NCBI RefSeq assembly: GCF_024298765.1
Contig: NZ_CP101210.1
Origin: Escherichia coli
GTDB lineage: Bacteria > Pseudomonadota > Gammaproteobacteria > Enterobacterales > Enterobacteriaceae
Length of the DNA: 64,000 nt
Direction: 5' to 3' (one strand)
The notes under the pieces are model-generated. The model was not told the DNA's origin. It searched no databases and saw only the letters and a program-made list of their open reading frames with translations. This document shows, in pieces, positions 12,215-38,004 of the stretch. A program made the position numbers and the translations under genes. The stretch's first letter is position 1; every line of letters starts with the position of its first letter.

Positions 12215-12250
12215 ACGACACTTGCAGTGGGAAAGACGGAGGAAAATAGC

Positions 12251-13008: not shown

Positions 13009-13020
13009 AATTCATATAAA

Positions 13021-13050
13021 CGGACCTCCACGGAGGTCCGTTTTTCGTTT
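13021..13050 (+). terminator. rho-independent terminator of pheU
   Basis: Perfect hairpin cggacctccacggaggtccg followed by tttttcgtttt. Confidence 0.85.
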
Positions 13051-13205
13051 TAGGACGCCACGATTTAAGCGTCCTGCCGCCAAATCAATTCTACCGAACT
13101 CAACCAGACTCCCCCCACATCAACCCCATTGTGTGGGTATAATTGCGGGTATACCCCAGTTCGACAGAATTTGTACCCTCTTTAACGCATTCAGAAGGCT
13201 GAACT

Positions 13206-18435: not shown

Positions 18436-18543
18436 AGCAGGAATGGTGAGTAGCCATCTTACCGATCGTTTTCGAGCGTAAGATGGCTGAATGGAATGGC
18501 TATTATTGCACAGTCCTTAATTATAACATTCATACCGACATGA

Positions 18544-20043
18544 TTATCTTCTGTCCGGAAGAATCAGAGGCTGTGGTTTCAGACTGTCTGCCGGTACATT
18601 CCTGTCTCCGTTAAAAACAATAACGGGTTCATTATCTTCGTCTGTCAGCGGATTGAATGGCGGTATATTTTCAGTACGAATGCCGGTCAGCCACTGAAAA
18701 ATACCTGCGAAATGACGGGCACTGATTTTTCTGCTGACGGACTGATGAGACGTGATGTCACTGGCGGTAATAATCAGGGGAACGCTGTAGCCTCCTTGTA
18801 TATGGCCATCATGATGAACAGGATTAGCACTGTCGCTGACCGACAGACCATGGTCAGAAAAGTAAAGCATGGCAAAATGACGGGAGTGCCGGCGAAGGAT
18901 ACCATCAAGCTGACCGAGAAAGTTATCCAGTTTACTGATGCTGGCGAGGTAACAGGCAATCTTTCGGGGATACTGCTCCAGGTAATGATTCGGCCAGGAG
19001 TTAAGTCGGTCACACGGATTCGGATGAGAGCCAATCATGTGCAGGAATATCACCTTCGGAGAGGATTTATCCGCCAGTGCACGTTCTGTTTCCTGTAACA
19101 ACAACATGTCATCCGTTTTACGGGAAGCAAAGCTGCCTTTCTTGAGGAAAACGGTATGCTCCGCATCAGAAGCAATAACAGAGATGCGTGTATCATGCTC
19201 CCCCAGTTTTCCCTGATTGGATATCCACCATGTGCTGTATCCTGCTTTTGCTGCCAGCGCCACCACGTTGTTGCCGGAGTCAGGGTTCTGCTCATAGTCA
19301 TAAATCAGTGTCCGGCTCAGGGAAGGTACGGTACTGGCTGCTGCCGATGTATAGCCGTCAATAAATAAACCGGGAGCCGTATTCAGCCATGGTGTGGTTG
19401 GCACGGGATAGCCATATACCGACATATAATCCCTGCGCACACTCTCACCAGTAACGATAACAATCGTGTCATACAACGGTGTTCCCGGCAGGATTTTCCA
19501 GTTGTCAGCCCCGTGCTGACTCAGTTGTTTATAACGCTGCATTTCACGCAATGTGTCAGTTGTTCCCACAACAATTCCTTTAACCATCCGCAACGGCCAG
19601 CTGTTTACAGAGCATAATACGAACAGCAGCAGTGCCAGCCAGTTACGGTGACCGCGGTGGTGTGTCCGCCAGAAAATCACCATGAATACCAGAATCGCGG
19701 CACTGACCAGAAAATGATAAACAGGAATCATCCCGGTAAACTCTGCAGCCTCATCAGCCGTGGTCTGCAGCAACGCGACAATAAAACTGTTGTTGATTTT
19801 ACCGTACGTCATACCCGCAGGCGCATACAGTGCACAACAGAACAGAAATAACAGCGTTGTAATGGATGTGAGGGTATTTCTGTGTGCAAGGAGCAGAAGG
19901 AGAAACAGAAGCAGCACATTTCCTGTGGCATTCTTCTCAGTGTATCCGCATGCAATTGTGGTTATCACAGAAATAACAAAAAAGAATAAAAACAATAAAA
20001 TCCGGGGTGTGTCGCCCGGACAAAACAGTTTTCTGATATTCAT
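18544..20043 (-). CDS. phosphoethanolamine transferase / sulfatase-superfamily inner-membrane protein (EptA/MCR-like family)
   Basis: 499-aa ORF; N-terminal multi-TM region then periplasmic domain with VTGESVRRDYMSVYGYP (cf. GE[T/S]AR nucleophile motif of EptA/MCR), HMIGSHPNP and FSDHG metal-site motifs. Confidence 0.7.
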   Translation of the reverse strand: MNIRKLFCPGDTPRILLFLFFFVISVITTIACGYTEKNATGNVLLLFLLLLLAHRNTLTSITTLLFLFCCALYAPAGMTYGKINNSFIVALLQTTADEAAEFTGMIPVYHFLVSAAILVFMVIFWRTHHRGHRNWLALLLFVLCSVNSWPLRMVKGIVVGTTDTLREMQRYKQLSQHGADNWKILPGTPLYDTIVIVTGESVRRDYMSVYGYPVPTTPWLNTAPGLFIDGYTSAAASTVPSLSRTLIYDYEQNPDSGNNVVALAAKAGYSTWWISNQGKLGEHDTRISVIASDAEHTVFLKKGSFASRKTDDMLLLQETERALADKSSPKVIFLHMIGSHPNPCDRLNSWPNHYLEQYPRKIACYLASISKLDNFLGQLDGILRRHSRHFAMLYFSDHGLSVSDSANPVHHDGHIQGGYSVPLIITASDITSHQSVSRKISARHFAGIFQWLTGIRTENIPPFNPLTDEDNEPVIVFNGDRNVPADSLKPQPLILPDRR

Positions 20044-20224
20044 CGGAGTATATCGACAACATTATTATGAAGAGAACAGGATAATAAAAATCAGAAATTA
20101 TCTGTAAAACAGATAACAGACAACCCTGCAGCAATAGACTGCAGGGTGTTTCTGTTTAATTGCAGAAGATATACAATTATATTAATTACAGAATATTCGT
20201 GATTATCTCTCGGGAACAGTGTTG

Positions 20225-20965
20225 TCAGAAGTTATAAGTCACACCAAGCATGATGTCATGACTTTTAACATCAACTTCTGACTTATATTTATCGCCCCAC
20301 TCGTCCTTGTAACTCACACTGCTGTCACCTGCATCAAGATAGCGATAGCTGAGGTCCAGAGCGATATCCGGGGTTACGTCATAGCGGACACCCGCGCCAA
20401 GGTTCCATGCGAAGTTGTCAGCAGAGCCTGAACGTGACAACGATTCGCGACCACTGCTTCCGTACTCATAATCCCAGGTACTGATACCGGTTGTTTTCTG
20501 GTGAATTCTGGCGTAGCCAATCCCTGCAGATATCCAAGGTGTGAATGCGCTGTCATTCCGGAAGTCATAGTACGCATTCAGCATTAGTGTGTTGACTGAC
20601 ACCTCATTCTTCAGGTCATCACGCCAGTAACCACCTGACCAACTGTCTTTATCTACGTTATACTTCGAATCAGCTTTTCCACGAGCGTAAAACTCCAGTT
20701 CTGTACGAACCGGAATACTGAACTGCGGATAAAAATCATAACCAGCCGCGATACCACCACTGAATACCGTATCATGGTCATCGCCGCCTTTATACTTTGA
20801 CGTTTCTTCCTCATCTCCTGACAGGAAACGCTGGTCTGAAAGTGACACCACAGAGGTACCGGCTTTACCGGTCAGATAAAAACCGCTTTTACCTTCCTCA
20901 GCACCTGCATTTGCTGCAAATACACAGGCTGCGGCCACCACTGAAACAGCAAAAACCTTTTTCAT
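20225..20965 (-). CDS. outer-membrane beta-barrel protein (OmpA-like transmembrane barrel family)
   Basis: 246-aa ORF; Sec signal peptide MKKVFAVSVVAAACVFAANA; alternating amphipathic beta-strands; C-terminal aromatic residue (GVTYNF) typical of OMPs. Confidence 0.7.
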   Translation of the reverse strand: MKKVFAVSVVAAACVFAANAGAEEGKSGFYLTGKAGTSVVSLSDQRFLSGDEEETSKYKGGDDHDTVFSGGIAAGYDFYPQFSIPVRTELEFYARGKADSKYNVDKDSWSGGYWRDDLKNEVSVNTLMLNAYYDFRNDSAFTPWISAGIGYARIHQKTTGISTWDYEYGSSGRESLSRSGSADNFAWNLGAGVRYDVTPDIALDLSYRYLDAGDSSVSYKDEWGDKYKSEVDVKSHDIMLGVTYNF

Positions 20966-21452
20966 TTCAATTATCTCCGTTATTGCTCCGTTGCTGCAAG
21001 CAGTACTCAGTGCATTTTAAAACCCGCCATGCTATAGCCTCAATCGAATAAAATCGATCGAATCGATCGATGATATCGATCGTCATTAACCAGAAATTTT
21101 TATCGTATTCAGTCAGCACAGACACAACAAATGCATGCCATGCAGGCAGCCATGCCCCGTCGCGACAGATGGTAGCAGTGGGCTGGCGAAGAGCAGAATT
21201 AATAAAATTTGTTTATTCTGTCAGGAGATAAGGTGTCACCTGTTCATGAACACAATTAAGGAAGAGACATACATGAGCTGACTGGCAGTCCAGAGTGCAT
21301 GCGGTTACAAGCCGGAAAGGTGAACCGGTATAACCAGTGAGCAGAGTTTGTGAAGGGGGGATATAAAAAAGCCCACTGCATGGCTGCGGGTAAAGAGTCA
21401 GTTATTTCCGGCGTTTTTCAAGGTAGTTGTCGCCTGATGTAATAAAATTACG

Positions 21453-21790
21453 TTATGCCGCTTCTTTTTCTGGATTCAGATAAACTGCCTGAATGAGTTC
21501 CCAGTCACGCAACTGTTTGCTCCAGCGCTCAGGATGACGCTTGCGAGCTTCGCGATAAACTTTTTTTCTGGCTTCCAGTATTTGTGCATCAATTCCGCGA
21601 TGGCGTTCATCCGGAGTAACATACTTAATACCGCTGTGCTTGTGTTCCAGGTTGTACCATTACGTGAACTTGCTTAACCAACTTCTGGCTTCATCTATGG
21701 TTCGAAAACCATTCTCCGGCCACCATGAACAATACTTAATCGTCCGGAAGAGCGATTCGGAATAAAGAAGTGTTACTGGCAGTTCTTTCA
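21453..21790 (-). pseudogene. remnant of IS3-family transposase OrfB (C-terminal part, in-frame stop)
   Basis: Minus-strand translation gives ...GFRTIDEARSWLSKFT*WYNLEHKHSGIKYVTPDERHRGIDAQILEARKKVYREARKRHPERWS..., typical integrase-core C-terminus, interrupted by a stop; no intact ORF. Confidence 0.5.
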
Positions 21791-21820
21791 TCGCATCAGT
21801 GAAAACCAGCAGGGCACTGC

Positions 21821-22162
21821 TCACCAGAGCAACACAGGAAAGTGAACCCGAACAAAAGTTCCTGTACCATTTTCTCCCAGCAGACGTGAGGCTTGTTCCA
21901 GTGACGCTGGTATACGTCCCAGCCGGACATCAAGTGCGCCGATGGCTATTGCCTGAAATCGCATCGTACAGCAAATCACCAACAGGACACCGACAGACAT
22001 TAAAGGTAACCCCCTGTAATCCAGTAGTTCCGACAGCCAGCGGTCATTTAGGGAGTCAGAAAACCAATCGCCAGAATCGTGCCCGGAAAGGCATAACCCA
22101 GCGACGCCCCTCTCATCACACCGCGCCTGAACAGTGGCATAGCGTTGAGGAATTCCGGGCAT
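21821..22162 (-). pseudogene. possible fragment of an ABC-transporter permease gene
   Basis: 113-aa ORF contains permease-like EAA-loop-type segment (IPASLEQASRLLG) but is far too short and lacks context. Confidence 0.25.
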
Positions 22163-22291
22163 TCCAGACTACGAGCAGACTGACAAAAATTACGACAAAG
22201 CGTTGAAGGAAGCCAGCGCGCGGACTGACAGGACTTTACCATAAAAACACAGGCTAACCGCGCCTGCGTTTTTAATGACGGATAAACAGAA

Positions 22292-24271
22292 TCAGGTGCC
22301 GATTATGCCGCCGTCGGCTTTTACGATAACGACAGTTGAGGAGCGCGGACGACCAGCCTTATCGCCGTCAGGCCAGCTTGATACTGCCGTCGGATGCTGC
22401 GGATCGCTAAGCCCTTCGCTTGGCTCGCCAGGGTGCTGGATGTTAATAAACAGCGTCCGGTTATCCGGAGTGAACGCGATGCCGGTGATTTCGCAGCCGC
22501 GCGGGCCGGTCAGGAAGCGGCGGAACTCATTGGTACCGGGGATCGTCGCCACCATCTGGTTGTTGCCCATGCCTTTGTAATCTTTACTATTGATGGTTGA
22601 TGACGACACGTCGGTCTGGATCCATAGCACGCCGCGGTGATCGAAGCTCAGGCCATCGGCGCTGCCGAATTCCGCCCCCTTCATGCTGCCTTTGGTTTCC
22701 GGTTTGTCCGTATCGGTGCGACCGCCCATCACAAGAATATCCCAGGCAAACTGCAGCGCGGTCGGGTCACCGTTATGCTCCAACCAGTGAATGATGTGGC
22801 CGTAAACGTTTTTGGCGCGCGGGTTGGCCGCATCCACTGGCGCTTTTCCTTCCTTACCGCGATCGCTGTTGTTGGTGAGCGTGCAGTAAACGCTGCCGGC
22901 GTGATATGGATCGACCGCAATCCACTCCGGGCGGTCCATTTTAGTGGCCCCCACGGCGTCTGCCGCCAGACGGGTTTTAATCAACAGGTCGCCCTGGTTT
23001 TCAAACCCTTTACTGGCGTCGAGCCCATTTTGTCCGAACACCAGCGGTAGCCACTCGCCTTTGCCGTCGTCGTTAAATTTCGCCACGTACAGAGTGCCTT
23101 TTTCCAGCAGGTGCATGTTGGCTTTGCGATCCTGCGGGTTGAATTTTCCTTCCGAGACAAATTTATATATGTATTCGAATTTCTGGTCATCGCCCATATA
23201 GACCACAACGCGGTTATCCGGGGCAATTGTCACCGCTGCGCCTTCGTGTTTGATGCGACCAAGCGCGGTGTGCTTGCGCGGCACTGAATGCGGATCGTAT
23301 GGATCGATTTCCACCACCCAGCCGAAGCGGTTCGGCTCGTTCGGCGTGGCGTCGACGCTGAACCTTTTATCCACTTCGTTCCAGCGGTAAGAGTCGTCGC
23401 TCCCGCTGATACCGTAACGTTTTTCCAGCGGGTTCATCTCTGCTTTTTTTACGAAAATATCGGACCAGTTCTCTTCACACGTCAGATAGGTGCCCCACGG
23501 CGTAAATCCGTTGGCACAGTTCTGCATGGTGCCGAGAATGATTTCGCCTTTCGGATCGTCAACTGTTTGCATCAGTGGGTTATGCAGCGCCGGACCGGTG
23601 ATTTTCATCGGCGTGTTAACGGTGATGCGGCGTGCGAAAGATGACGGGCGCACCACTTCCCAGCCCAGGGGCACTTTTTTTACTTCAATGACCGACACGC
23701 CCATCGCGTTCTGGCCTTTAAGAGCTTTATCGGCGCTCCAGTTGGCATCGCCATCTTTAAACAGTAGACCGTTATCGATGTATTCATGGTTTATGGCAAG
23801 CAGGCCGTGATCGGAGCTGTTCCCGCCCTGCGGCAGGCTAAACCACGCCATGCCGTCGTGGTGCATCCCGGCCTGCGCCGCCTGTTCTTCCGTGGTGTTG
23901 CTACCGTCGGTTTTAAAAACCGGCAGATTTCCGGCAATCCCGGTGGCGTCGCCCCATTTGTAGAAGGGCTTCGCGATGTATCCTTCCGGCACGATAACGG
24001 TATCTTCCGTGGAAACCGGCAGGCTGGTGAAACCGAGCGTCGTCGCTTTGCCGAGGTTACCGCTTGCTTTGGAGACCACTTTCGCCAGCGCGTTTTCCTG
24101 TTTCAGCAGAAATGGGAACGCTGCCGCGGCACCGGCGACCGTGCCTGCCTGTAACAGACGGCGGCGTGACAAATAGACTTCCGCCACCTGCGAAAACGCG
24201 CGGTTATCGCTCGGGTTACTGATTTCTTCACTATGCTCACGTTTGAATAAAGTTTTTAACGGTCTGCCCAT
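22292..24271 (-). CDS. phoX: Tat-secreted PhoX-family alkaline phosphatase (DUF839-like)
   Basis: 659-aa ORF; twin-arginine signal (SRRRLLQAGTVAGAAAAF); overall resemblance to PhoX family by memory. Confidence 0.6.
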   Translation of the reverse strand: MGRPLKTLFKREHSEEISNPSDNRAFSQVAEVYLSRRRLLQAGTVAGAAAAFPFLLKQENALAKVVSKASGNLGKATTLGFTSLPVSTEDTVIVPEGYIAKPFYKWGDATGIAGNLPVFKTDGSNTTEEQAAQAGMHHDGMAWFSLPQGGNSSDHGLLAINHEYIDNGLLFKDGDANWSADKALKGQNAMGVSVIEVKKVPLGWEVVRPSSFARRITVNTPMKITGPALHNPLMQTVDDPKGEIILGTMQNCANGFTPWGTYLTCEENWSDIFVKKAEMNPLEKRYGISGSDDSYRWNEVDKRFSVDATPNEPNRFGWVVEIDPYDPHSVPRKHTALGRIKHEGAAVTIAPDNRVVVYMGDDQKFEYIYKFVSEGKFNPQDRKANMHLLEKGTLYVAKFNDDGKGEWLPLVFGQNGLDASKGFENQGDLLIKTRLAADAVGATKMDRPEWIAVDPYHAGSVYCTLTNNSDRGKEGKAPVDAANPRAKNVYGHIIHWLEHNGDPTALQFAWDILVMGGRTDTDKPETKGSMKGAEFGSADGLSFDHRGVLWIQTDVSSSTINSKDYKGMGNNQMVATIPGTNEFRRFLTGPRGCEITGIAFTPDNRTLFINIQHPGEPSEGLSDPQHPTAVSSWPDGDKAGRPRSSTVVIVKADGGIIGT

Positions 24272-24693
24272 TGCGGTTTCCTTTCAAAAAATCGATTTCA
24301 AGGGGAATCATTTTTATGCACGTGAGTCTACGGAAAGATTGTTACGGAAATATAACAATTGTCATAAAAAACCGGCGATAAAATCATCTATGGTCGGGAC
24401 GCGGTTTCAGGTATGATGTGAGGCTAGAATTCTGAACGCTCTCTTTTGTTGAGCATATATGGACGTCCCAGATGAGGCAAGTACTGGTTCGATGCGGTTT
24501 GCGACCATATATCCGGCGTCGTTAGTAGGTTCAATGACCTGCGCCATGATGTTATCCGGGCCCTATTTCCTAATCACTACACCGGTATTTGATTACCCAG
24601 GTCAACTTCAGACTGTTACAGGGGCGGTAGCCGTTATCTCATCAGTGAATGTAAACTCAGTTAAAAATATTTTCTATAACTTACTGTTTTTCT

Positions 24694-24877
24694 TTAATTC
24701 ATCACAACGGCCTTCTGCATATTAAAATCAATACTATCGCTCAAAACACGCCAGATGATTCTTGTCAGCTTATTCGCCAGCGCACCAGTGGTTTTCAGGA
24801 ACCCTCGACGGGCTTCCATCCTTTGCAGACAAATACTCAGACTGTCAGTGAGCTTTTTCACACAGCGCATTACAGAC
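24694..24877 (-). pseudogene. possible IS110-family transposase C-terminal remnant
   Basis: Segment GALANKLTRIIWRVL resembles conserved C-terminal motif of IS110-family transposases; ORF N-terminus runs into IS911 end so it is chimeric. Confidence 0.3.
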
Positions 24878-25252
24878 TGAAATGGCACACTGAATTTGGT
24901 CACCTGAACAGAGGTGATATGCTCACCTCAGAACAAGACTGGTGCCCTAATGAAAAAAAGAAATTTTAGCGCAGAGTTTAAACGCTAATCCGCCCAACTG
25001 GTTGTTGACCAGAACTATACGGTGGCAGATGCCGCCAAAGCTATGGATATCGGCCTTTCCACAATGACAAGATGGGTCAAACAACTGCGTGATGAGCGTC
25101 AGGGCAAAACACTAAAAGCCTCTCCGATGACACCAGAACAAATCGAAATACGTGAGCTGAGGAAAAAGCTACAACGCATTGAAATGGAGAATGAAATATT
25201 AAAAAGGCTACTGCACTCTTGATGTCAGCCTCCCTGAACAGTTCTCTATAAT
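24878..25252 (+). mobile_element. IS911 (IS3 family) left end with orfA, frameshifted and truncated
   Basis: Terminal sequence tgaaatggcacactgaatttggtcacctgaacagaggtg; orfA product matches remembered IS911 OrfA (MKKRNFSAEFKR...[37 protein letters not shown]...) but has a TAA after codon 12 and a one-A deletion in the A6G slippery run; element is cut about 25252. Confidence 0.75.
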
Positions 25253-25361
25253 AGGGAAACTCAGGACACGTTATCCTTTGGTCACTCTCTGTGTAGTGGA
25301 TCGGTAATTCAGGACACCTCATTTTCACTGTTAATGTTAAAAAGTGAAAATGAGGTGATGC

Positions 25362-26161
25362 ATGATCAAAACTCGTCGGACTAAACGTACCTTTTCCCCG
25401 GAGTTCAAGCTTGAAGCTATCGAACAGGTGGTTAAATACCAGCGTGATGTCAGAGAAGTCGCGCTGGCACTCGAGCTCAACCCTGACCATTTGCGTAAAT
25501 AGATACGGTTGTATAAGCAGGAACTTCAGGGTATTGAGCCCGCTGGTAATGCTATTACTCCTGAACAACGCTAAATTAAGCAGCTTAAAGCGCAGATAAA
25601 GCGCCCTGAGATGGAAAAAGAAATACTAAAGCAGGCTGCCGTGCTGATGAGCGAAATCCCCGGGGAAACTGTCGCGCTAATCACACAGCTGAAAGCAAAG
25701 TGGCCAGTGCGGGTTCTTTGTCATTTATTCGGTATTCACCGTAGCATTTATTACGCGCAGGTGAAGCGTCCTGTTAATGTGCAAAGAATTGAATTACGAA
25801 GTCGGGTGAGGGCTGTCCATGCTCTCAGTCGTGGCGCAGTCGGTAGCCGGGCAATCAGTCAGATGTTGCGCCATAGTGGCGTTGATGCAGGCCGGTGGCT
25901 GGCACGACGACTGATGCGGGAATGCGGGCTGACAAGTCGACAGCCAGTTAAACATCACTACCGGGTAAACGAAGACAAAAGTCCGCCATTGCCAAATTTA
26001 CTGAACCGGCAATTTCACCCCGCCGCACCAAACCGCGTCTGGTGCGGCAACATCAGTTTTATTCGCCTGCAGGACAAATGGTGTTATCTCGCACTCGTTG
26101 TTGATTTATATTCACGGCGGATTATCGGTTCAGCCCTCTCATTAACCGCTGATGCTGAGTT
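25362..26161 (+). mobile_element. IS3-family element fragment (orfA with two in-frame stops; orfB truncated by IS66 insertion)
   Basis: orfA-like MIKTRRTKRTFSPEFKLEAIEQVVKYQRDV...LNPDHLRK*; orfB-like 25611..26165 (WPVRVLCHLFGIHRSIYY...) stops at the IS66-family terminus at 26162. Confidence 0.6.
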
Positions 26162-26198
26162 GTAAGCGTACAGCGAGGGCCGTATTGACGGGGATGTG

Positions 26199-27461
26199 TT
26201 ATTCAGCTGGCAGTGCTATGCGCCACGGAAGCAGTTCGCTGACCCGGTTGACCGGCCAGTCTGCTATGACGCCAAGCACATGGCGAAGGTAACTTTCTGG
26301 ATCCACGTCATTCAGTTTGCACGTCCCTATCAGGCTGTACAGTAGCGCTCCCCGCTCACCACCATGGCCAGAGCCGAAGAACAGGAAGTTTTTACGACCC
26401 AGACTTACCGCCCGCAGGGCATTTTCAGCGATGTTGTTGTCGATTTCCACCCAGCCATCGTTCGCATAGTACGTCAGTGCCGGCCACTGGTTAAGTGCGT
26501 ACGCGAACGCCTTCGCCAACTCTGAGTGTCGCGACAGGGTCTTCATCTTTTCACGCAACCAGCTTTCCAGGGATTTCAACAGCGGTTTCGTTTTTCGCTG
26601 ACGTTCAGCAAGCCGCTGCTCTGCCGGCATTCCCCTTATATCCGCCTCTATGGCGTACAACTGACCGATCTGCTCCAGGGCTTCTTCCGTCAGTGCTGAC
26701 GGGATGCGGACGTGCACATCGTGGATCTTTCGGCGGGCATGAGCCCAGCAGGCAGCTTCCGTTATCCCACCATTGCGATACAGCTCGTTGAACCCGGCGT
26801 ACGCATCCGCTTGCAGCACACCGCTGAAGCAAGCAAGATGAGTCTGCGGATGGATGCCTTTTCTGTCCGGGCTGTAAGCGAACCACACTGCAGGTGCCAA
26901 CGCTGACCCGGCATTGCGGTCATCACGAACATACGCCCACAACCGCCCGGTCTTCGTCTTCTTATTACCCGGCATCAGTACCTGGACCGGGGTATCATCG
27001 GCATGGAGTTTGCCGTCAGTCATGACATAGCCATGAAGCGCCTCTTCCAGCGGAGACAGCAGCCGGCAGCATGCATCCACCCAGCCCGACAGCAGTGAAC
27101 GGCTCAGCTCCACACCTTGCCGGCCGTATATTTCTGACTGGCGATACAGCGGGGTGTGCTCTGCATACTTCGAGGTCAGCACGCGGGCCAGCAGCCCCGG
27201 TCCGGCGATACCCCGCTCGATGGGCCGCGAAGGTGCAGGTGCCTGCACGATGGCATCGCACTGAGTACAGGCATGTTTTTCCCGTACCGTCCGGATAACC
27301 CGGAAGGCGCTACGCATCAACTCCAGCTGTTCGGCGGTATCCTCGCCCAGATAGCTCAGTGAACCGCCGCAGTTCGGGCAGCACGGCGCCGCAGGCAACA
27401 GTCGCTTTTCGTCACGGGGTAGTGATTCAGGGAACGGCTTACGGATGCGGGTCTGACGCAA
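26199..27461 (-). CDS. tnpC: IS66-family transposase TnpC (C-terminal 420 aa; N-terminal part in another frame)
   Basis: Zn-finger-like CCPNCGG...CTQC and DDE region; N-terminal leucine-zipper part is in ORF 27356..27736, implying a frameshift. Confidence 0.7.
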
Positions 27462-27736
27462 CGGACGCTGTACTGCGGGTCATACACCCTACCAGTCAGC
27501 GTATCGCTCTCTTTCTGAAGCCGGTTCAGATCGGCTTCCATTTGTGCGATACGGCGGGAGACTTTTTCGGAACGACTGCCGAAGTTCATCCGGCGGAGTT
27601 TATCCAGCTGCGCCTGCAGATGGTCTATTTCGCGCTCCCGGTTGCTCAGCTTTTCCTGCAGGGCGTGGATCAGCGCTTCCTGTTCGGCCAGGCGCTGTTT
27701 CAGCAGGAAGATGTCGTCAGAAGAGATGTCGTTCAT
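27356..27736 (-). pseudogene. IS66 TnpC N-terminal segment (frameshifted relative to the C-terminal part)
   Basis: 126-aa ORF with coiled-coil region (LLKQRLAEQEALIHALQEKLSNREREIDHLQAQLDKLRR); overlaps 26199..27461 in a different frame. Confidence 0.6.
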
Positions 27737-27785
27737 AAGCCCGTATTTTACCGGGCTTATTCTGTGACAACCAGGATAAAGAGAT

Positions 27786-28133
27786 TTACAGCATGGTCAG
27801 GGAGGTCAGCAGCCGCTTAGGCTGTCGCCAGTCGATACCTTCCAGCAGCATCGCCAGCTGCGCCTGTGTAAGGAACACTTTGCCATCACGGGCTGACGGC
27901 CAGGCGAAGCGCCCACGCTCCAGCCGTTTGGTCAGGAGGCACAGTCCGTCACCGGTGGACCACAGCAGTTTAACCTGACTGCCGCTGCGGCCCCGGAAAA
28001 TGAAAACATGGCCGGACATGGGATCGTCTTTCAGCGCCGTCTGTACTTTCGCAGCCAGGCCGTTGAAGCCATTTCTCATATCGGTGATACCGGCAACCAG
28101 CCAAATTTTGGTCCCGGAAGGTAACGGGATCAT
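27786..28133 (-). CDS. tnpB: IS66-family Orf2 (TnpB)
   Basis: 115-aa ORF MIPLPSGTKIWLVAGITDMRNGFNGLAAKV; canonical IS66 Orf2. Confidence 0.85.
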   Translation of the reverse strand: MIPLPSGTKIWLVAGITDMRNGFNGLAAKVQTALKDDPMSGHVFIFRGRSGSQVKLLWSTGDGLCLLTKRLERGRFAWPSARDGKVFLTQAQLAMLLEGIDWRQPKRLLTSLTML

Positions 28134-28531
28134 CGCTTCAGTTCCTGTATCAGCAGAGTCAGGAGCTTTTCGCTGACATTGCCATTGAAGCGGAGCGTCC
28201 CGTGCCGGAACGTTACCTCACAGCTGATACTGAGGGTTTCCGGGTCCTCTGCGAGCGATTCTGGCTGTTCGGCAGCTGCATCGAGAGTCACAGGAAGTAG
28301 CTGGGGGCTCTCTGAAGAAGGTAATATCAGCTTTCCCTCGCGCCATTGTTGTCGCCATTTGAACAACAGATTGGCGTTAATGCCATTTTCAAGAGCAAGT
28401 TTTGAGATGTATATCCCGGGTTCACAGGAGGCAGCAACGAGCTGCTGTTTAAATTCGGGAGGATAATTAGGGCAGCCTTTTCGCCTGCCGGGAGTCACAT
28501 TTTTCTGCATATCTGACACTTTGGTTCCCAC
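28130..28531 (-). CDS. tnpA: IS66-family Orf1 (TnpA)
   Basis: 133-aa ORF overlapping tnpB by 4 nt; typical IS66 Orf1. Confidence 0.8.
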   Translation of the reverse strand: MGTKVSDMQKNVTPGRRKGCPNYPPEFKQQLVAASCEPGIYISKLALENGINANLLFKWRQQWREGKLILPSSESPQLLPVTLDAAAEQPESLAEDPETLSISCEVTFRHGTLRFNGNVSEKLLTLLIQELKR

Positions 28532-28587
28532 TACTTATTTGAAGTGCGCCCCAATAGTTAGACACCAGATCTGTAACTGAGGAGCGT

Positions 28588-28943
28588 ATGAGCAAATTTT
28601 CATTAGAATTCAAAAGGGAAGTATCAGAAAAATACCTGGAAGGTGAGCTGAGTTTGAAGTCTGTTGGAAAAATGTACAATATTGACCCCAGCACGGTAAG
28701 GAAATGGGCTTATGTTTACCGTAAGCACGGATTAAAAACACTGACTGGGCAAAAAAGACGTTATGACGATAACTTCAGATTGAATGTGGTCAGAGATGTT
28801 ATTGATAATTCTCTTTCTATAAGGGAAGCTGCAGTGAAGTATGGGATCCCTGCTTTTAACACCATATCCAAATGGATTAAAAAATACAGTGAGGTTGATT
28901 TTTCGATGAAGGGACAAAAGGAAGATTTGAGGCCGAAAACTCC
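28588..28943 (+). pseudogene. HTH transposase-like OrfA gene, 3-prime end replaced by IS1
   Basis: 125-aa ORF with two HTH-like segments; last codons are encoded by the IS1 terminal repeat beginning at 28944. Confidence 0.5.
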
Positions 28944-28998
28944 GGTGATGCTGCCAACTTACTGATTTAGTGTATGATGGTGTTTTTGAGGTGCTCCA

Positions 28999-29274
28999 GT
29001 GGCTTCTGTTTCTATCAGCTGTCCCTCCTGTTCAGCTACTGACGGGGTGGTGCGTAACGGCAAAAGCACCGCCGGACATCAGCGCTATCTCTGCTCTCAC
29101 TGCCGTAAAACATGGCAACTGCAGTTCACTTACACCGCTTCTCAACCCGGTACGCACCAGAAAATCATTGATATGGCCATGAATGGCGTTGGATGCCGGG
29201 CAACAGCCCGCATTATGGGCGTTGGCCTCAACACGATTTTACGTCACTTAAAAAACTCAGGCCGCAGTCGGTAA
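28999..29274 (+). CDS. insA: IS1 InsA
   Basis: 91-aa [46 protein letters not shown]... Confidence 0.95.
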
Positions 29275-29696
29275 CCTCGCGCATACAGCCGGGCAGTGAT
29301 GTGATTGTCTGCGCTGAAATGGACGAACAGTGGGGCTACGTCGGTGCTAAATCACGTCAGCGATGGCTGTTTTACGCGTATGACAGGATACGGAGGACGG
29401 TTGTGGCGCACGTCTTCGGTGAACGCACTCTGGCCACACTGGAGCGTCTTCTGAGCCTGCTGTCGGCCTTTGAGGTCGTGGTATAGATGACGGATGGCTG
29501 GCCGCTGTATGAATCACGCCTGAAGGGAAAGCTGCACGTTATCAGCAAGCGTTACACTCAGCGCATTGAGCGACATAATCTGAATCTGAGACAACATCTG
29601 GCAAGGCTGGGACGGAAGTTACTGTCGTTCTCAAAATCGGTGGAGTTGCATGACAAGGTCATCGGGCATTATCTGAACATAAAACACTATCAGTAA
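29193..29696 (+). pseudogene. insB: IS1 insB with internal stop (TAG at 29484..29486)
   Basis: insB reading frame split into 29193..29486 and 29487..29696; canonical ...FEVVMWMTDGW... reads ...FEVVV*MTDGW... here. Confidence 0.8.
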
Positions 29697-29837
29697 GTTG
29701 GAGTCATTACCTCCTCCCGAACTCAAAGCTATCATACAGATAATTACTGGTTAACCCTATATAGGGCATTTTAAAGTGTTGTGATCTTACCCAGCAATAG
29801 TGGACACGCGGCTAAGTGAGTAAACTCTCAGTCAGAG

Positions 29838-30143
29838 GTGACTCACAAGACAAAACAGTTTCAACCAGTAAAAAAACGTAAACAGCATTCGCCTGAATTT
29901 CTCAGTGAAGCCCTGAAACTTGCTGAACGCATCGGTGTTGCTGCCGCAGCCCGTGAACTCAGCCTGTATGAATCACAGCTCTATGCGTGGCGCAGCAAAC
30001 TGCAGCAACAAATGAGTTCGTCAGAGCGTGAAAGTGAACTGGCCGCTGAAAATGCCCGCCTGAAGCGGCAACTGGCGGAGCAGGCAGAGGAACTGGCTAT
30101 CCTCCAAAAGGCCGCGACATACTTTGCGAATCGTCTGAAATGA
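29838..30143 (+). CDS. IS3 OrfA (GTG start)
   Basis: 101-aa HTH/leucine-zipper ORF ...[42 protein letters not shown]... Confidence 0.85.
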
Positions 30144-31006
30144 AGTATGTCTTTATTGAAAAACATCAGGCTGAGTTCAGCATCAAAGCAATGTGCCGCG
30201 TGCTCCGGGTGGCCCGCAGCGGCTGGTATACGTGGTGTCAGCGGCGGACAAGGATAAGCACGCGTCAGCAGTTCCGCCAACACTGCGACAGCGTTGTCCT
30301 CGCGGCTTTTACCCGGTCAAAACAGCGTTACGGTGCCCCACGCCTGACGGATGAACTGCGTGCTCAGGGTTACCCCTTTAACGTAAAAACCGTGGCGGCA
30401 AGCCTGCGCCGTCAGGGACTGAGGGCAAAGGCCTCCCGGAAGTTCAGCCCGGTCAGCTACCGCGCACACGGCCTGCCTGTGTCAGAAAATCTGTTGGAGC
30501 AGGATTTTTACGCCAGTGGCCCGAACCAGAAGTGGGCAGGAGACATCACGTACTTACGTACAGATGAAGGCTGGCTGTATCTGGCAGTGGTCATTGACCT
30601 GTGGTCACGTGCCGTTATTGGCTGGTCAATGTCGCCACGCATGACGGCGCAACTGGCCTGCGATGCCCTGCAGATGGCGCTGTGGCGGCGTAAGAGGCCC
30701 CGGAACGTTATCGTTCACACGGACCGTGGAGGCCAGTACTGTTCAGCAGATTATCAGGCGCAACTGAAGCGGCATAATCTGCGTGGAAGTATGAGCGCAA
30801 AAGGTTGCTGCTACGATAATGCCTGCGTGGAAAGCTTCTTTCATTCGCTGAAAGTGGAATGTATCCATGGAGAACACTTTATCAGCCGGGAAATAATGCG
30901 GGCAACGGTGTTTAATTATATCGAATGTGATTACAATCGGTGGCGGCGGCACAGTTGGTGTGGCGGCCTCAGTCCGGAACAATTTGAAAACCAGAACCTC
31001 GCTTAG
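30140..31006 (+). CDS. IS3 OrfB (integrase core, DDE)
   Basis: 288-aa ORF with rve-type catalytic core (WAGDITYL...[15 protein letters not shown]...[10 protein letters not shown]...). Confidence 0.85.
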
Positions 31007-31036
31007 GCCTGTGTCCATATTACGTGGGTAGGATCA

Positions 31037-31685
31037 CTAAGCCAGGAATTAAGTCATTTAAAGATATTTCAAATTCACTGGCAATCGTATCTAATCCTTC
31101 CTTATCAATAGATTCAAGCCATAAATTATAATCAATAGGAAGAAGCAACGGATGAGTAAAGTTCAATCTATTTACTAAAGATGATTTAGTATACTCATCA
31201 TTACTTAGCTCTCCAATAAATTCATTATTTATAGAAACAGCATAGTTCTTTATATATGCTGCTCTGTGCAATTGTGACCATGCGATTTTAAACTCTACAT
31301 AAACCTTTTCAGTTTCATCTGCAATGTCTTTCATTTTTATAAAATGAATATCGAAAATATCACCAAGTTCTTCTAAATATGTTTTATATTCTACACCTAT
31401 TGTTTGTTCAGGATCGAAACCGATACCAATAGTAATTACATTATTCAGATCCCCATTATGGACTAGAGATCTAAATCCATCTATGCGCCTGTTCCCCATA
31501 GCTTCTAAATATATAGGATCACACTGCTCACGGTCTAATATTTGTTGAAGATAAAATAATGCAATTAAAATAGTAGTCTTGCCCGCGCTGTTTGGCCCCA
31601 ATAGTAATGTTACAGGTGCAAAATCAATTTCCTGCCGCTCTCTAACAGATCTGAAATTTTCAAGTACAAGTTTAGTTAATTTCAT
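31037..31685 (-). pseudogene. AAA/ABC-type ATPase gene (OLD/Abi-like N-terminus) truncated at 3-prime end by IS3
   Basis: N-terminus MKLTKLVLENFRSVRERQEIDFAPVTLLLGPNSAGKTT (Walker A); ORF runs into the IS3 terminus after about 215 codons. Confidence 0.65.
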
Positions 31686-31693
31686 AATGAACC

Positions 31694-32800
31694 TTACATG
31701 AAATATTTATTCGATAGGTTTGATGCTAAAAGTTGAAGTTGCATTGCGCTTTTATCATAAATGCTTAGTCCTTTTTTTATTTTTTTATAAATAATCTCAT
31801 ACTCATCTTGTAGATGCTTAGGTGGGATTAATATCTCTATATTCTGCAATTCCTGTGCATTAATATTAGCCATGCCAACAATACTTTTACACATATTCAT
31901 CAATGTGATTTTGCCATGGATGGAATTAAGATACCCTGAAATATAGTAGTTATTTCCGATAGAATTAGGTCTAACGCGGATTAAATATCCAGCAAATGCC
32001 ATAGGCCTGTCTTCTTCATACACAGCTGTTTTACCAACAAGTTCCTTACTGTTAGTACGATTGAAAAGAAGATCGCCTTCTTTAACCAAATATTTATCCT
32101 TTTCTTTTACACTGAGATCAAGATATTTTAAATCTGTAAAATCCCACCTACCTTGATATGTTATATTACCCATCCGTAATATAGGATATTCACCAGAATC
32201 AATAGAGGCTTTTGCTGAAGTTCCATAATTTACTGAATCAACCAAGTCGCGAATCGTTCCTTTCGGGAAACGATGTATGTTGTTTGCAGGAGTTCCAAAC
32301 ATCTCTAGAAACTTAGCCCGCAAAAAATCATCAGCCAGTTTGATGGCTTGTTCGCGTTTTTGGCGTATACCCTCAGCTTTATCGAGAAGATCCACAATTC
32401 GTTTCTGCTCTTCAAAAGGTGGTAATTTAATAAATGTATCATAGAGATCGTCTCTATTTAATCCAGGAATACTTGTGGTAATCGTTTTCTTAGTGAGATC
32501 AATTCCGCTCAGAATATAAAACAAGTATCGGAGATCTAACTTATTATTATCTTTGATCTCAACGTAATAAGCAGTATCAATGATCCAACCTCCGTCAGGA
32601 GCCCAGGTAATAGCACCAACGCTGCCTTTGCGACCAATAATTATCGTGGGATAGCTGCAAAGCGTTTTATCGTGGTTGCCGACAATTCCTGAACTACCAA
32701 AAACATGGACACTTCCATTCGATACTCGCTGATCAGCTTTTAATGCTTTTCCGTAGTGAACATTAATAACATCCCCTAACTTCACCATCGCCGAACTCAC
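31694..32800 (-). CDS. hsdS: type I restriction-modification specificity subunit HsdS
   Basis: 368-aa ORF overlapping hsdM stop by 4 nt; two target-recognition-domain-like halves; operon position. Confidence 0.8.
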   Translation of the reverse strand: MSSAMVKLGDVINVHYGKALKADQRVSNGSVHVFGSSGIVGNHDKTLCSYPTIIIGRKGSVGAITWAPDGGWIIDTAYYVEIKDNNKLDLRYLFYILSGIDLTKKTITTSIPGLNRDDLYDTFIKLPPFEEQKRIVDLLDKAEGIRQKREQAIKLADDFLRAKFLEMFGTPANNIHRFPKGTIRDLVDSVNYGTSAKASIDSGEYPILRMGNITYQGRWDFTDLKYLDLSVKEKDKYLVKEGDLLFNRTNSKELVGKTAVYEEDRPMAFAGYLIRVRPNSIGNNYYISGYLNSIHGKITLMNMCKSIVGMANINAQELQNIEILIPPKHLQDEYEIIYKKIKKGLSIYDKSAMQLQLLASNLSNKYFM

Positions 32801-34431
32801 AGCATACCCTCCAGCTCATCCAGATCCGCCAGAATTTCTTTTTCCAAATCTTTTAAGCGCTTTAGTATCACCTTCGGATCTTCATATTCCTCCGCCTGAT
32901 ACACCACTTCTTTATAACGATTGATAGAGAGATCGTATTTCTGCGCAGCAATATCCGCTTTCGGTACAACAAACGCCGCCTGCGTGCGATCTTTAAAATC
33001 AACGCCAGCATCAATCCCTTCCGGGTACTGCTGTTTAAGCAACGAGGCTAACTTCTCACCCATAAAGTTATCAACCGGTAGCCCGCGTAAAGTACGGTAA
33101 TGCTTCCAGCTTGCCAGCAGATGCGGCAGATCGTTGTCTTTTATCGGGTTGCGCTTATCATCCAGGCTGTAGCCATCATTTTGCAGATCGTAGAACCAGA
33201 CCTCATCCGTTTGACCGCCTTTGGTAAAGATCAGGATCGCCGTCGCCACGCCAGCGTAAGGTTTAAATACACCAGAAGGCAGATTGATCACCGCTTCCAG
33301 TTGGTTATCTTCCACCAGCGTTTTGCGAAGTGACTGGTGCGCCTTGCTGGAGCCAAACAGCACGCCCTGCGGCACGATAGTGGCACTGCGCCCGCCCACT
33401 TTCAGCATTTGCAGAATACGCGCCAGGAACAGCAGTTCGGTTTTTTTGGTTTTCACCATTGCCGACAACGTGGAGTCGATATCTTCCTCGTCCAGTGAAC
33501 CGGTAAAAGGCGGGTTCGCCAGAATCAGATTGAAAGCGTTTTTACTGGCCTGAGGGAAGTTAGTGCTGAAGCTCTGGCTCATGGTGTCCTGATAGTGAAT
33601 ATCCGGCGCTTCCACACCGTGCATAATCAGGTTCATAGCGGCGATACGCAGCATGGTGGTATCAAAATCGTAACCGTGGAACATATTGTTATCTACATGG
33701 TTACGCCACGGTGTCAGCAGATCGCCGGTAAAGATTTTTTGCTCTTCCAGTTCGCCACGTTCGTTGGTGCCAATCTCAGTATGGATGGATTCCAGCGAGC
33801 TGTACTTCTCCAGAAGATATTCATAGCTGGTTGCCAGAAAACCACCGGTGCCACAGGCGGGATCACAAATCGTCTCGCCGCGGGCCGGGTTCGGCTCCAT
33901 CATTTCAACCATCGTGCGGATAATGTGGCGCGGCGTGCGGAACTGACCGTTGATTCCGGCAGTGGTCAGCTTGCTTAACAGGTATTCGTAAAGGTCGCCT
34001 TTGGTGTCGCCACGATCCAGCGGCAGGTTTTTGATCACCTCAACCGCTTTGGTCAGTAATGACGGCTTAACAATCTCCAGACGAGCATCTTTCATAAAGT
34101 TGCCCAGCAGCGTCACCTTCGACGCATCGGCCTGGCCAAGCTGACGAAAATGCTGGAATACGCCATCGCGCACCACTTCCATCATCTCATCCGAGCCAAG
34201 ATTGCTATAGTGACTGAAACGGAACTCCTGCTGTTCTGGCGCAAAACGCGGTTTAAAATCAATTCCCGCGATTTGTTTACGCTTCTCGTCGCGTTGTTCC
34301 TGGGTATCCAGCATCCGGGAATACATCAGATAGGTGATCTGTTCGATTACGGTCAGCGGGTTGGTGATACCACCCACCCAGAAATCTTCCCACAGGCCGT
34401 CGATTTTACTTTTTAAGTCACCAGTGATCAT
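32797..34431 (-). CDS. hsdM: type I restriction-modification N6-adenine DNA methyltransferase HsdM
   Basis: 544-aa ORF; SAM-binding [10 protein letters not shown] and catalytic NPPF motifs. Confidence 0.9.
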
Positions 34432-34494
34432 TGTTAGCGTTTATATCCTGTTTTAAATACAAAAGCCCCGCTGTCGGGGCTTGTCATGTGCGTA

Positions 34495-37400
34495 TTATAC
34501 CGTCGCTGCGTCGGTCACAACACCCAGCTCTTCGACTATCTTTTGCAGGCGGGCGATCTGCTCTATATCCGGGAACACACCGGTAACGCCTTCGTTGTGG
34601 ATATGCGTAAAAGGCTGTTCAAAGAGCTGCCGCATTTCAATGGTGCCGTAATCGCGAATGTGGTTTTTCAGCAATGACAGGAAGCGCAGTTGTTGGCTGG
34701 TCAGACTGTTATCAGCGGCGAACTGAGCAAAGCGCACTTCCACCGCGTCGCTGTCCATCCCGATGATGGTACGCAAAAGTTTATCCAGGCTGGCAGTTGC
34801 CTGCGGATAGAACTCTTTCAGTGCCCGGATATCAACGTTGGGGTTCTGGATCAGCACCAGCTTCGCCAGCTCATCCAGCTCGTTTTGCGTGACTGGCTCA
34901 CCGTTGCGGATTTTCTTCAGCACCGGATTTTGCTGGAACAGCGGCTCCAACGCTCCCTGAACCTGCTGGCGATAGAGTTTGAAATCAATCGAGCGGATAT
35001 TAGTTTTGCGGGTCTCTGTCTGGATCAGGTTCGCATCTTCGGTAATATCTACCTGTATCGAACCAAATTTTGGCGTCGCGTCTTTTTCCATCAGGTGCAT
35101 GATGCCGCGCAGATGAATGCGGATATCTTCCAGCTCTTCCAGGCTGGCCTGCTTCCACCAGCCTAAATCACGAAGCTGATTGATCCGCGGTCCTTGCTGT
35201 TGGACCTGCGCCAAATGCGGCGGCAGGCGCTCCACTTTTTCGACGATGACCGGCCAGAGCACATCCAGCTCTTCCGGGTTGGTATAACGGGCAGTTTGCG
35301 CCGCCAGAATATCCATATCAAAGCGCATAGCGTCGCTTTGCCCGCGCACGTCCAGCCACTGCATCAGCGGGGCCAGGACAGATAGCAAATCCTGCTGTGT
35401 TTTCGGGGAAAGCTGGCGCAGCACTTTTTCATCGCTGTACTGCGCTTTTTGATGCCACTTTTCCTGGACGGCAATCGACTTTTCATCCAGTGCATTGATT
35501 TGCTCGCGTAGCTGGTGAGCAACTAAATCCACCGCCTGTTTGTCGAATTTACGTTGCGCAGCGGCCCCCAGCATAACCCACGCTTCGAAGCGTTTTTGTG
35601 CAAGCGATTTTGTCGCTGTGACTTCGGCCTCTTCGGTATGCAGTTCGTGATACTCAAAATTGCCCCAGTGATCGAAAATGCGGAATTTCTGTTTATCCAG
35701 AGGTTTGCCGTTATCGTCGTAACCGTACAACCCCGGACAGAGGCGCGTACCACGGCCAATCATCTGCCAGAACTTCACTTTTGATTTGACCGGTTTGGCA
35801 AAGACCAGATTCACAATTTCCGGGACATCAATACCGGTATCGAGCATGTCAACGGAGATAGCGATGGTCAGCTCTTTGTTGGTGCTTTCATCCAGCCCTT
35901 TAAAATCATCAATCAGTTGCTCGGCGCGGGGATCGTAATTGTCGATGACCTGGCAGAAGCGCCCGGCAAACTGCGGGTACATATCGTCGAATAATTCATT
36001 CAACAGCAGCGCGTGTTTGTGGTTACGGGCGAAAATGATGGTTTTACCTGGCAACTGGCCGTCCCGATCTTTCAGGCCATTTTCCATCAGGTTACGCAGG
36101 ATATAGCGGTTGGTGTCTTTGTTGTAGATCGCCTCATCCAGCGCCTTGCCATCAAACTCCAGCGTATTGGGATCTATGCCTTGTTCTTCCAGCTCGCGGA
36201 TTTGTGCGTCGCTTAATTTCTCCCGTTTGATGCCTTCGCGCAGGAATTCTGTGGTGTGCGTGACAACCTCATAGGGAACCAGATTGTTATCGGCGATGGC
36301 ATCTTCCAGGCTGTAGTTGGCGGTAGGAATACGTCCTTCACAACCAAACAGGCCGAAAGTGGTTTTACTCACCATGTCAATCGGCGTGGCCGTCAGGCCA
36401 ATCTGGAGGGCATCAAAATACTTAAACAGATCGCCGTAAACGTTGTAGATAGAGCGATGGGATTCATCGGCGATGATCAAATCGAAATAACCAACATCGA
36501 AATGGTCCATGATTTTCATCATACCAGGATAGGTGGCGATGTAGATCCTAGCATTCTGCCTGTCTGCTTTTTTCGATTTCCCGACCACATACAGCGGCTC
36601 ATTGGTGAATTGATTAAAGGCATTCGCCGCCTGTTTACGTAGTTCCTTGCGGTCGCAAAGAAACAGGACGCGTTTTACCCAGCGGGCATCAATCATCAGT
36701 TTGCTTAGCGCTATTGCCACGCGGGTTTTGCCTGTACCCGTAGCCTGAACAATTAGCGATTGCCGGTATTTGTTGGTAAACCGCTCGCTGACACGGGCAA
36801 TGGTTTCAAGCTGGTACAAACGTCCGGCAACGGCCTTACCTTCGTTATCTTTTACGTGCGGCACACTGTTCAGCGGAAGACGGGTTTCACGCTGTTGAAT
36901 AAGATATTGCAGGCTTTCCTTGCTGTAGAAGCCAAACACCCGACGCGGGGGATAACCATGAGTTTTATGGTCATCCCACAGCCAGATATCATAGCCGTTG
37001 GTGTAGAAGATGATCGGACGCTGGCCGTATTCTTTTTCCAGCCAGTCTGCATACAGCCGGGCCTGAATTCGTCCTTGCTCGGCATTGACGCTGGTTTTTT
37101 TTGCTTCCACCACCGCCAGCGGTTTGTGTGCCTCATCCCACAAGACATAGTCCGCATAACCGTCTCCGGTCGCGGTAGGTTGTTCTTTAACGGGATGTTC
37201 CTGCGTAACCTGATCGGTATTTTTAAGGCCTTCGCCTACATTCCAGTCAGCAGCAAGCAGGCGAGAGTCAATCAGGCGACGGCGGGTTTCCGCTTCATCA
37301 ATAGAGAGAATATCGGCAACATGCTGGTTACGCGCTCTGGCTTCATTCAGGCGTTGAGTGAGGTGTTCGGCCTTTTCCTGTTCTTGCTGTAGTGCGCGTT

Positions 37401-37911: not shown

Positions 37912-38004
37912 TCATCGCCTTATGTCGTGGATACAACAGCATTTCTGGAAAGAATATCACACTAATTTGGCCGACGAAGTGAGCCGGAAAGGGCGGAATT
38001 ACCA

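Follow-up and report, generated by a model that had tools for sequence, protein, structure and literature searches.

The window analysed here, a stretch of 64,000 nucleotides from an Escherichia coli chromosome (contig NZ_CP101210.1, assembly GCF_024298765.1), carries a genomic island next to a tRNA-Phe gene, and within this island lies a dense cluster of decayed insertion sequences (ISs). The cluster occupies positions 24449-31036 (6,588 bp), of which 99% is IS DNA and the sole non-IS part is a spacer of 70 bp. Each base of this interval was assigned by comparison with intact or differently broken copies from public genomes, which revealed seven IS-derived segments from four families: IS110, IS3 (four segments), IS66 and IS1. 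All of these elements come from known families and the cluster is an ordinary feature of a known kind, IS-rich seams in mosaic tRNA-associated islands being a textbook trait of E. coli genomes. We conclude, with a probability of about 0.88, that it is a seam between modules of an island at pheU, built up in layers, the final joins having been made by homologous recombination between IS copies.

A preliminary description made from the sequence alone had placed the cluster at 24694-31036 and counted five or six IS types. Its right border stands, whereas the left one moves to 24449 with the 245 bp added by the IS110 3' non-coding tail, and the count gives way to seven segments of four families. 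The elements which it had listed were all recovered, namely an IS110-like remnant, an IS911 fragment, a second IS3-family element with a stop-riddled orfA, an IS66-family element with a frameshifted tnpC, a helix-turn-helix (HTH) transposase gene cut by IS1, an IS1 with a nonsense codon in insB and a near-complete IS3. The image of a graveyard was also well chosen: five of the seven elements lack one end together with the greater part of their transposase, the IS66-family member ISEc8 is frameshifted and IS1 carries its nonsense codon. In the equivalent region of strain XB2, the Prokaryotic Genome Annotation Pipeline (PGAP) annotates a string of transposase pseudogenes.

Composition of the insertion sequence cluster

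At the left border, positions 24449-24877 (minus strand) hold the 3' remnant of an IS110-family element, made up of the last 61 transposase codons (24694-24877) and a complete 3' non-coding end of ~245 bp. Its open reading frame (ORF) of 69 amino acids has no match in Pfam and a weak profile match to positions 302-340 of 343 of the NCBIfam IS110 model (E = 2.8e-4); in tblastn it resembles the C-terminal end of a transposase annotated as IS110-family, with 85% of the amino acids identical (E = 2e-26). At the DNA level the remnant is 93% identical across 429 bp to the 3' end of the element at locus L007, and homology to an intact element runs through the terminus. Homology is lost at 24449-24456 in three independent and unrelated contexts, which fixes the true terminus of the element there. 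The N-terminal ~283 transposase codons are absent, and the combination of a DEDD domain with a C-terminal Transposase_20-type domain is consequently not found; the segment is a remnant of an IS110-family member and not a functional member.

The remnant is followed by a 5' fragment of an IS911-like element of the IS3 family (24878-25291, plus strand), 93% identical across 414 bp to copies annotated as 'IS3-like element IS911 family'. Its left inverted repeat is intact (TGAAATGGCACAC) and aligns to that of IS911, and its orfA matches HTH_Tnp_1, so that both the TG-bearing left repeat and the HTH-type orfA of the IS3 family are present. Codon 13 of orfA has changed from GAA to TAA, and the slippery run, as read from the sequence, is one A short. 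The fragment lacks orfB (rve), the right inverted repeat and the 3-bp duplication, and it ends at 25291, where the left inverted repeat of the next element (TGTAGTGG) begins.

This next element, also of the IS3 family, retains its 5' 870 bp out of ~1255 (25292-26161, plus strand). It is 95% identical to the copy at L009, which is full-length (~1255 bp) and also defective, and its nearest named relative is ISKpn37 (77%). Two in-frame stops interrupt orfA, a TAG at 25500-25502 and a TAA 23 codons further on. The orfB gene is cut within the rve domain (Pfam rve positions 2-48 of 102, with HTH_Tnp_1 and HTH_21 also detected), and what is left of it covers positions 73-259 of 369 of the NCBIfam IS3 model with 151 bits, its truncation keeping it below the cut-off of 160 bits. 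The right inverted repeat is absent from the window and present in B771 and at L009.

ISEc8, identified from Pfam, PGAP and intact copies, occupies 26162-28539 on the minus strand, where 2378 of its 2442 bp remain. Its ORFs are those of the IS66 family (Pfam TnpB_IS66, DDE_Tnp_IS66, zf-IS66 and LZ_Tnp_IS66, NCBIfam IS66 TnpA), and its equivalent elsewhere is annotated by PGAP as 'IS66-like element ISEc8 family, frameshifted'. With intact 2442-bp copies it shares the order tnpA-tnpB-tnpC, the GTAAGCG terminus on the tnpC side (intact at 26162) and an identity of >99%. It differs from them by the loss of the terminal 62 bp on the tnpA side, including one terminal repeat (the CGCTTAC end), and by a 1-bp deletion in tnpC at 27475/6, which turns CTGCCGGG into CTGCGGG and does not lie in a homopolymer run. 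It also lacks the 8-bp target duplication, whereas the intact copies have both ends and this duplication. In B771, the second IS3-family element is interrupted by ISEc8 and resumes beyond it with its 3' part and right inverted repeat, 112 bp being lost at the insertion point; in A65EC, the ISEc8 end meets the same element 37 bp further in.

On its tnpA side ISEc8 is joined to the 5' 404 bp of a 1415-bp IS150-like element of the IS3 family (28540-28943, plus strand; left inverted repeat TGAAGTGCGCCCC), which is 100% identical to the copy at L012. Its orfA, a double-HTH gene, is mostly present (28588-28943, with Pfam HTH_28 and HTH_Tnp_1) and is cut by IS1 at 28943/28944. Plasmid pGF4-A carries the complete 1415-bp element at the identical position of ISEc8, with a TATT duplication, and the host ISEc8 has its own 8-bp duplication AGATAAAA. 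This complete copy has the characters of the IS3 family, with imperfect repeats TGAAGTGCGCCCC and TGTACTGCGCCCC, of which the window holds the first 404 bp only.

A true nest would read A-left, B-left, C, B-right, A-right. What lies in the window is instead a staircase of one-sided truncations, in which only left-hand parts are found and no distal half occurs in the interval. The preliminary description had called the cluster nested, which holds for its history and not for its present state. The existence of real nests in B771 and pGF4-A, where the IS150-like element lies in ISEc8 and ISEc8 in the second IS3-family element, together with the one-sided losses seen here, points to past nested insertions which were later truncated. 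A history made solely of nested insertions in place, with nothing lost, could draw on these same two cases (ISEc8 splits the second IS3-family element in B771, and the insertion into ISEc8 in pGF4-A carries its TATT duplication). Against it, all bases of 24449-31036 are assigned and none belongs to a distal half, the missing 62-bp end of ISEc8 was sought across the whole window and not found, no junction of the cluster shows a target-site duplication, and IS1 is a recombinant of two types. We therefore hold such a history to be highly improbable.

A recombinant IS1 and its fec-linked neighbours

The sixth segment is an IS1 of 768 bp (28944-29711, plus strand) with the structure of its family: both ends (terminal repeats GGTGATGCTGCC...GGAGTCATTACC), insA and the A6C slippery frameshift site are intact. 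Its insB is interrupted by a change from TGG to TAG at 29484-29486, so the InsAB' frame is not open, and its flanks GAAAACTCC and TCCTCCCGA differ, without the 8-9-bp target duplication of the family. A site-by-site comparison of seven IS1 copies with 73 variable sites revealed a mosaic. From 28944 to 29288 the window copy is of IS1A type at 30 consecutive sites and identical to an IS1A-type copy at the same site in CH4804. From 29300 to 29711 it is of IS1F type at 42 of 43 sites, including the TAG codon, and matches the copy beside fecIRA. The IS1 of the window is an IS1A/IS1F recombinant. PGAP reports an 'internal stop' both in the IS1 of ACN002 and in the fec-linked IS1 ('IS1F family'). TAG being the ancestral IS1F state, the insB nonsense codon was inherited through recombination and is not a fresh lesion.

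IS1F adjoins fec in K-12, differs from the consensus by 73 mismatches and transposes at most at extremely low frequency (PMC12428005). The window copy resembles the K-12 element beside fecIRABCDE in its right 412 bp, in its insB stop and in the same 70-bp flank, but its left 345 bp are of IS1A type and it sits in the IS150-like orfA rather than beside fec.

Three further genomes show related exchanges. ACN002 has the same hybrid IS1 with TAG, one base different from that of the window. CH4804 carries a direct duplication of ISEc8 tnpB-tnpA, the IS150-like fragment and IS1 around a 13-kb insert with an autotransporter gene and two ISEc45 copies. The left IS1 of this duplication is of pure IS1A type; the right one (L022) is the hybrid, in which a short stretch of IS1A type (29474-29485) turns TAG back to TGG. 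PGAP calls its transposase intact, and it appears that gene conversion from the adjacent copy has here repaired a dead IS1. The IS1 of XB2 is of IS1A type up to 29564 and of IS1F type from 29573, the exact product expected of a crossover (29564-29573) between the two IS1 of CH4804 that deletes the 13 kb. These patterns provide direct comparative evidence that the IS copies of the cluster act as substrates for deletion and gene conversion, and they bear out the earlier suggestion that the ISs drive deletions and rearrangement. A dense tract of mismatches between the IS1 of the window and that of XB2 had been considered as a conversion private to the window; this was ruled out by ACN002, which shares the window pattern, XB2 being the derived one. 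IS1A/IS1F hybrids with different crossovers (window and ACN002, XB2, CH4804) form a natural example of ISs serving as portable homology in deletion and gene conversion.

To the right of IS1 lies the non-IS spacer (70 bp, 29712-29781), which travels with IS1F. Of 5,426 genomes, 2,540 contain it, and in the two loci inspected that have the fec-linked IS1 it borders this element directly on the right. A part of plasmid ompT-type genes matches it with 96% identity.

The spacer is followed by a variant of IS3 (1255 bp, 29782-31036, plus strand), with no damage to either inverted repeat, to orfB or to the frameshift motif. In orfA the canonical ATG is AAG, with an in-frame GTG at 29838, and orfB encodes 288 amino acids that reach 339 bits on the NCBIfam IS3 model; the element has the structure of IS3 proper. 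With the 1258-bp IS3 of K-12 it shares identical inverted repeats, the frameshift region and an orfB that differs by one base (30992). It is 3 bp shorter than the K-12 element and has lost the canonical ATG, and its orfA is ~15% diverged over 29848-30134, a segment that holds 54 of the 55 differences (95.6% identity overall). The variant is thus itself a mosaic, with a diverged orfA beside an orfB with a single-base difference. It occurs at >=99% identity in 323 records. PGAP annotates an intact programmed-frameshift transposase on the XB2 copy, which has one difference (30910), and reports as 'frameshifted' a copy in a sequence type 80 (ST80) strain identical to that of the window as well as those of CH4804 and ACN002.

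The ST80 copy (L019), 100% identical to the IS3 variant of the window, lies beside fec and IS1F, also right after the 70-bp spacer. The IS1F part of IS1, the spacer and the identical IS3 beside fecIRA identify 29300-31036 as a copy of the fec-adjacent IS1F-spacer-IS3 block, joined through a crossover in IS1. The flanks of the IS3 variant are TTG on the left and CTA on the right, with no 3-bp duplication, whereas the finO copy of K-12 has AGC on both sides. The window and L019 share the left flank and differ on the right, L019 and L020 share the right flank and differ on the left, and the duplication is absent from all three. Such swapping of flanks, together with the lack of duplications in three IS3 copies, is what recombination among copies of IS3 would be expected to produce.

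The five elements that keep only their left-hand parts cannot move, and IS1 and IS3, which keep both ends, could at most be mobilised or act as recombination substrates. We regard it as very unlikely that IS1 and IS3, or ISEc8 with its cargo, form a functional mobile unit, that is a composite transposon moving the restriction-modification or the phoX module of the island. The terminal repeats of IS1 and IS3 would fit such a unit, as would the occurrence of the ISEc8-to-hsdR block at pheU in the window and ACN002 and at pheV in XB2. This distribution is, however, explained by a shared P4-type integrase with its tRNA-Phe attachment. Moreover, flanking duplications are lacking, and second copies of any cluster element were sought in the window without result, which leaves no pair of ISs to bracket a module. 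The IS1 transposase is interrupted by TAG, IS1F-type copies being essentially inactive (PMC12428005), and ISEc8 has lost one end, its tnpC being frameshifted.

Since IS-rich regions are classic places of misassembly, the stops, the frameshift and the odd joins might also be put down to sequencing errors or to repeats that were collapsed or wrongly joined, and the tract of 32 mismatches between the IS1 of the window and that of XB2 could resemble a chimeric consensus. Over the rest of the interval XB2 is nevertheless identical but for single-base differences at 28327 and 30910. The tnpC deletion, outside any homopolymer run, is found in four assemblies, including XB2, CH4804 and Ch1, and is absent from B771 and A65EC. 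Other genomes carry the segments with the orfA stops at 100% identity. ACN002 has the hybrid IS1 of the window type, TAG included, with one base changed, and TAG is the ancestral IS1F state. Finally, 6 to 14 complete genomes share the junctions: that between ISEc8 and the IS150-like element was found in 6 records, and that between IS3 and the adjoining ATPase gene in 14 genomes. As the same junctions and lesions are present in 4-14 independent complete genomes, they are not assembly errors, and an artefact is highly improbable. The full arrangement is rare, XB2 being the only one of 5,426 genomes that covers at least 80% of window positions 24000-32000.

The truncated ATPase gene and the hsd locus

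At 31036/31037 the outer end of IS3 abuts an ATPase gene of the ABC type (AAA_15/AAA_21), situated after hsdS, of which the first 216 codons are left (31037-31685, minus strand). The corresponding ORF (31020-31685) has 221 codons, 216 from the gene and five from the IS3 terminal repeat. In PCN033 (L016, 3131-5649) and EC26, the two genomes examined for this point, the full-length gene encodes 540 amino acids and overlaps the start of a gene for a protein of 298 amino acids. Among E. coli genomes, 272 carry the hsd locus with the ATPase 5' region, and most of these have no IS there.

The window allele retains residues 1-216, with the Walker A motif GPNSAGKT and a Pfam AAA_15 match restricted to positions 1-130 of 374. 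In this family of ABC-type ATPases, the C-terminal ATPase motifs are expected in the C-terminal part of the protein; the window allele, which keeps the N-terminal Walker A, would lack these C-terminal counterparts. The three top PADLOC models (PDC-M55A, NsnB and HEC-03B) have their matches in the full-length protein at residues ~344-538, a part that the window allele has lost, and the full-length protein also matches the AriA profile from end to end. The ATPase of the window is inactivated, since the half in which the C-terminal motifs are expected has gone.

The preliminary description had IS3 inactivating an ATPase linked to restriction and modification. This is correct in effect, the gene being cut at codon 216 of 540. 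Since the window lacks the other 324 codons of the gene as well as the partner gene of 298 codons, IS3 did not simply insert here, and its join with the ATPase gene comes from recombination or deletion. As a result, the type I restriction-modification locus has lost a companion ATPase and its partner gene.

The partner protein has no match in PADLOC or Pfam, so the pair was not assigned to a named defence system. In its full-length form the ATPase resembles those of the PARIS AriA, Gabija GajA and Septu PtuA type by its AAA_15/AAA_21 domains; the allele follows hsdS on the same strand. It differs from these systems in that the partner matches no model, and in the window by the restriction to the N-terminal 216 codons. 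ATPase and partner, linked as they are to a type I restriction-modification system, are possibly an uncharacterised defence pair. The ORFs of hsdS (368 amino acids), hsdM (544) and hsdR (1138) are open. Up to 32412 the hsdS gene shares 99% identity with the allele of PCN033, after which no homology is detectable (32412-32797) until hsdM, a pattern that indicates a probable exchange of the target-recognition domain (368 against 380 amino acids).

History of the seam within the pheU island

Three blocks that meet in the window are found separately in other genomes: phoX to ISEc8, the right part of IS1 with the spacer and IS3, and the hsd genes with the ATPase. The identities, borders and lesions of the elements, the mosaic IS1, these shared blocks and the recurrence of the junctions were all observed directly, and the proposal that such a hotspot marks a module junction is upheld. 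The phoX-to-ISEc8 block lies beside a vat-type S6 peptidase gene in many genomes of avian and extraintestinal pathogenic E. coli, and at selC in A65EC, where the shared phoX module starts at the equivalent of 21308, right after an IS1.

An eighth IS scrap stands on the far side of phoX, so that this gene is bracketed by IS debris. It is an IS3-family orfB remnant (21453-21764, minus strand, borders approximate) fused to a fragment of an iron ABC-permease gene (21821-22162). ORF 21660-21824 matches IS3-family transposases in tblastn (best E = 1e-15), and the equivalent of the scrap in A65EC is a PGAP 'integrase core domain' pseudogene; a Pfam scan of the short ORFs left of phoX gave no match.

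We infer the order and the mechanism of the individual deletions as follows. The IS110-type, IS911-like and second IS3-family elements would each have been cut by the next arrival, ISEc8 landing in the second IS3-family element. The 1415-bp IS150-like element would then have landed 62 bp from the end of ISEc8, and an IS1A-type IS1 in the orfA of the IS150-like element. At each step the distal half would later have been lost, leaving the staircase of left-hand fragments. IS1 would have recombined with a fec-linked IS1F, importing the IS1F right part with its TAG, the 70-bp spacer and the IS3 variant. Lastly, the outer end of IS3 would have been joined to codon 216 of the ATPase gene, by recombination and not by transposition. 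In such a history, the cluster marks the place where modules of the island are welded together. It also calls for caution in annotation, the small 'transposase', 'HTH protein' and 'AAA ATPase' ORFs of this region being fragments.

Several points weigh against this layered history. The order of the oldest events, which involve the IS110, IS911-like and second IS3-family elements, is read from the one intact end at each junction, and no genome with undisrupted older elements at this site was found. For each loss, adjacent deletion mediated by an IS and recombination between two copies would leave indistinguishable sequences. The IS3 variant, too, may still be active, given the intact transposase called by PGAP in XB2.

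The island itself begins after the tRNA-Phe gene at 12933-13008, with a P4-type integrase gene. The left flank (5346-14981), which contains yjdC/dicD, dsbD, cutA, dcuA and aspA, is 98.8% identical to the pheU neighbourhood of ACN002, and homology to XB2, whose island is at pheV, ends 48 bp past the tRNA-Phe gene. These two observations place the island of the window at pheU. The pheV site had been assumed first, XB2 being the closest relative, and was ruled out by the match to the ACN002 pheU flank. Near-identical island content thus occurs at both tRNA-Phe sites in different strains, pheU in the window and pheV in XB2.

Gene annotation was carried over from XB2, with which window positions 18000-38000 share 99.8% identity. 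The integrase gene is followed by genes for a 1171-amino acid AAA protein, a phosphoethanolamine transferase and an outer-membrane protein, the ABC-permease fragment and phoX. Then come the IS cluster, the truncated ATPase gene, hsdS, hsdM and hsdR, a cdiA remnant with its immunity gene and the microcin H47 cluster. According to a review, pheV is one of the tRNA loci targeted most often, and Fec is listed on leuX-associated islands and on the Shigella resistance locus island (PMC7545054). With the E. coli islands at pheV, pheU, selC and leuX, that of the window shares a tRNA-Phe gene with a P4-type integrase, modules shared piecemeal and IS fragments at the seams; it does not differ from them in kind, and only its order of seven elements is rare.

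Some differences between the related islands were also recorded. In ACN002 (L023, 9322-12426), ISEc8 is cut within tnpB at the equivalent of 28024, and an aac(3) gene, a gene for a 180-amino acid AAA ATPase and ISVsa5 stand in place of the phoX side, so that the same IS seam has there captured a resistance module too. Compared with XB2, the window is without 9,378 bp at 41755-41760, comprising two hypothetical genes, cdiB and ~6.3 kb of the 5' part of cdiA; the cdiA C-terminal remnant (ORF 38337-41801) and the immunity gene remain. A 1.3-kb IS3-family element of XB2 near the microcin H47 cluster is also absent from the window (52232-52238).

A last observation concerns the ~245-bp tail of the IS110 remnant (24449-24693, minus strand). 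In the IS1111 subgroup of the IS110 family, a guide RNA (bridge RNA or seekRNA) is encoded at the 3' end. Isolated copies of the tail, diverged by 7-15%, persist in ET826 and on an F-type plasmid (157 bp at 85% in the latter; loci compared L006, L007 and L021), and its first 51 bp account for most of the 841 plasmid places matched. It is highly doubtful that the tail represents an orphan guide-RNA gene which has been retained or which a related recombinase could use in trans. An Rfam scan of 24000-31500 at E <= 1 matched no described RNA family, guide RNA included, and the tail folds no more stably than shuffled sequences (z-score +0.9). Folding of an alignment of four tail copies, which are too similar to assess covariation, gave no compensatory changes; a stem at alignment columns 109-181 is conserved in these copies, and several one-sided changes within it keep the pairing.

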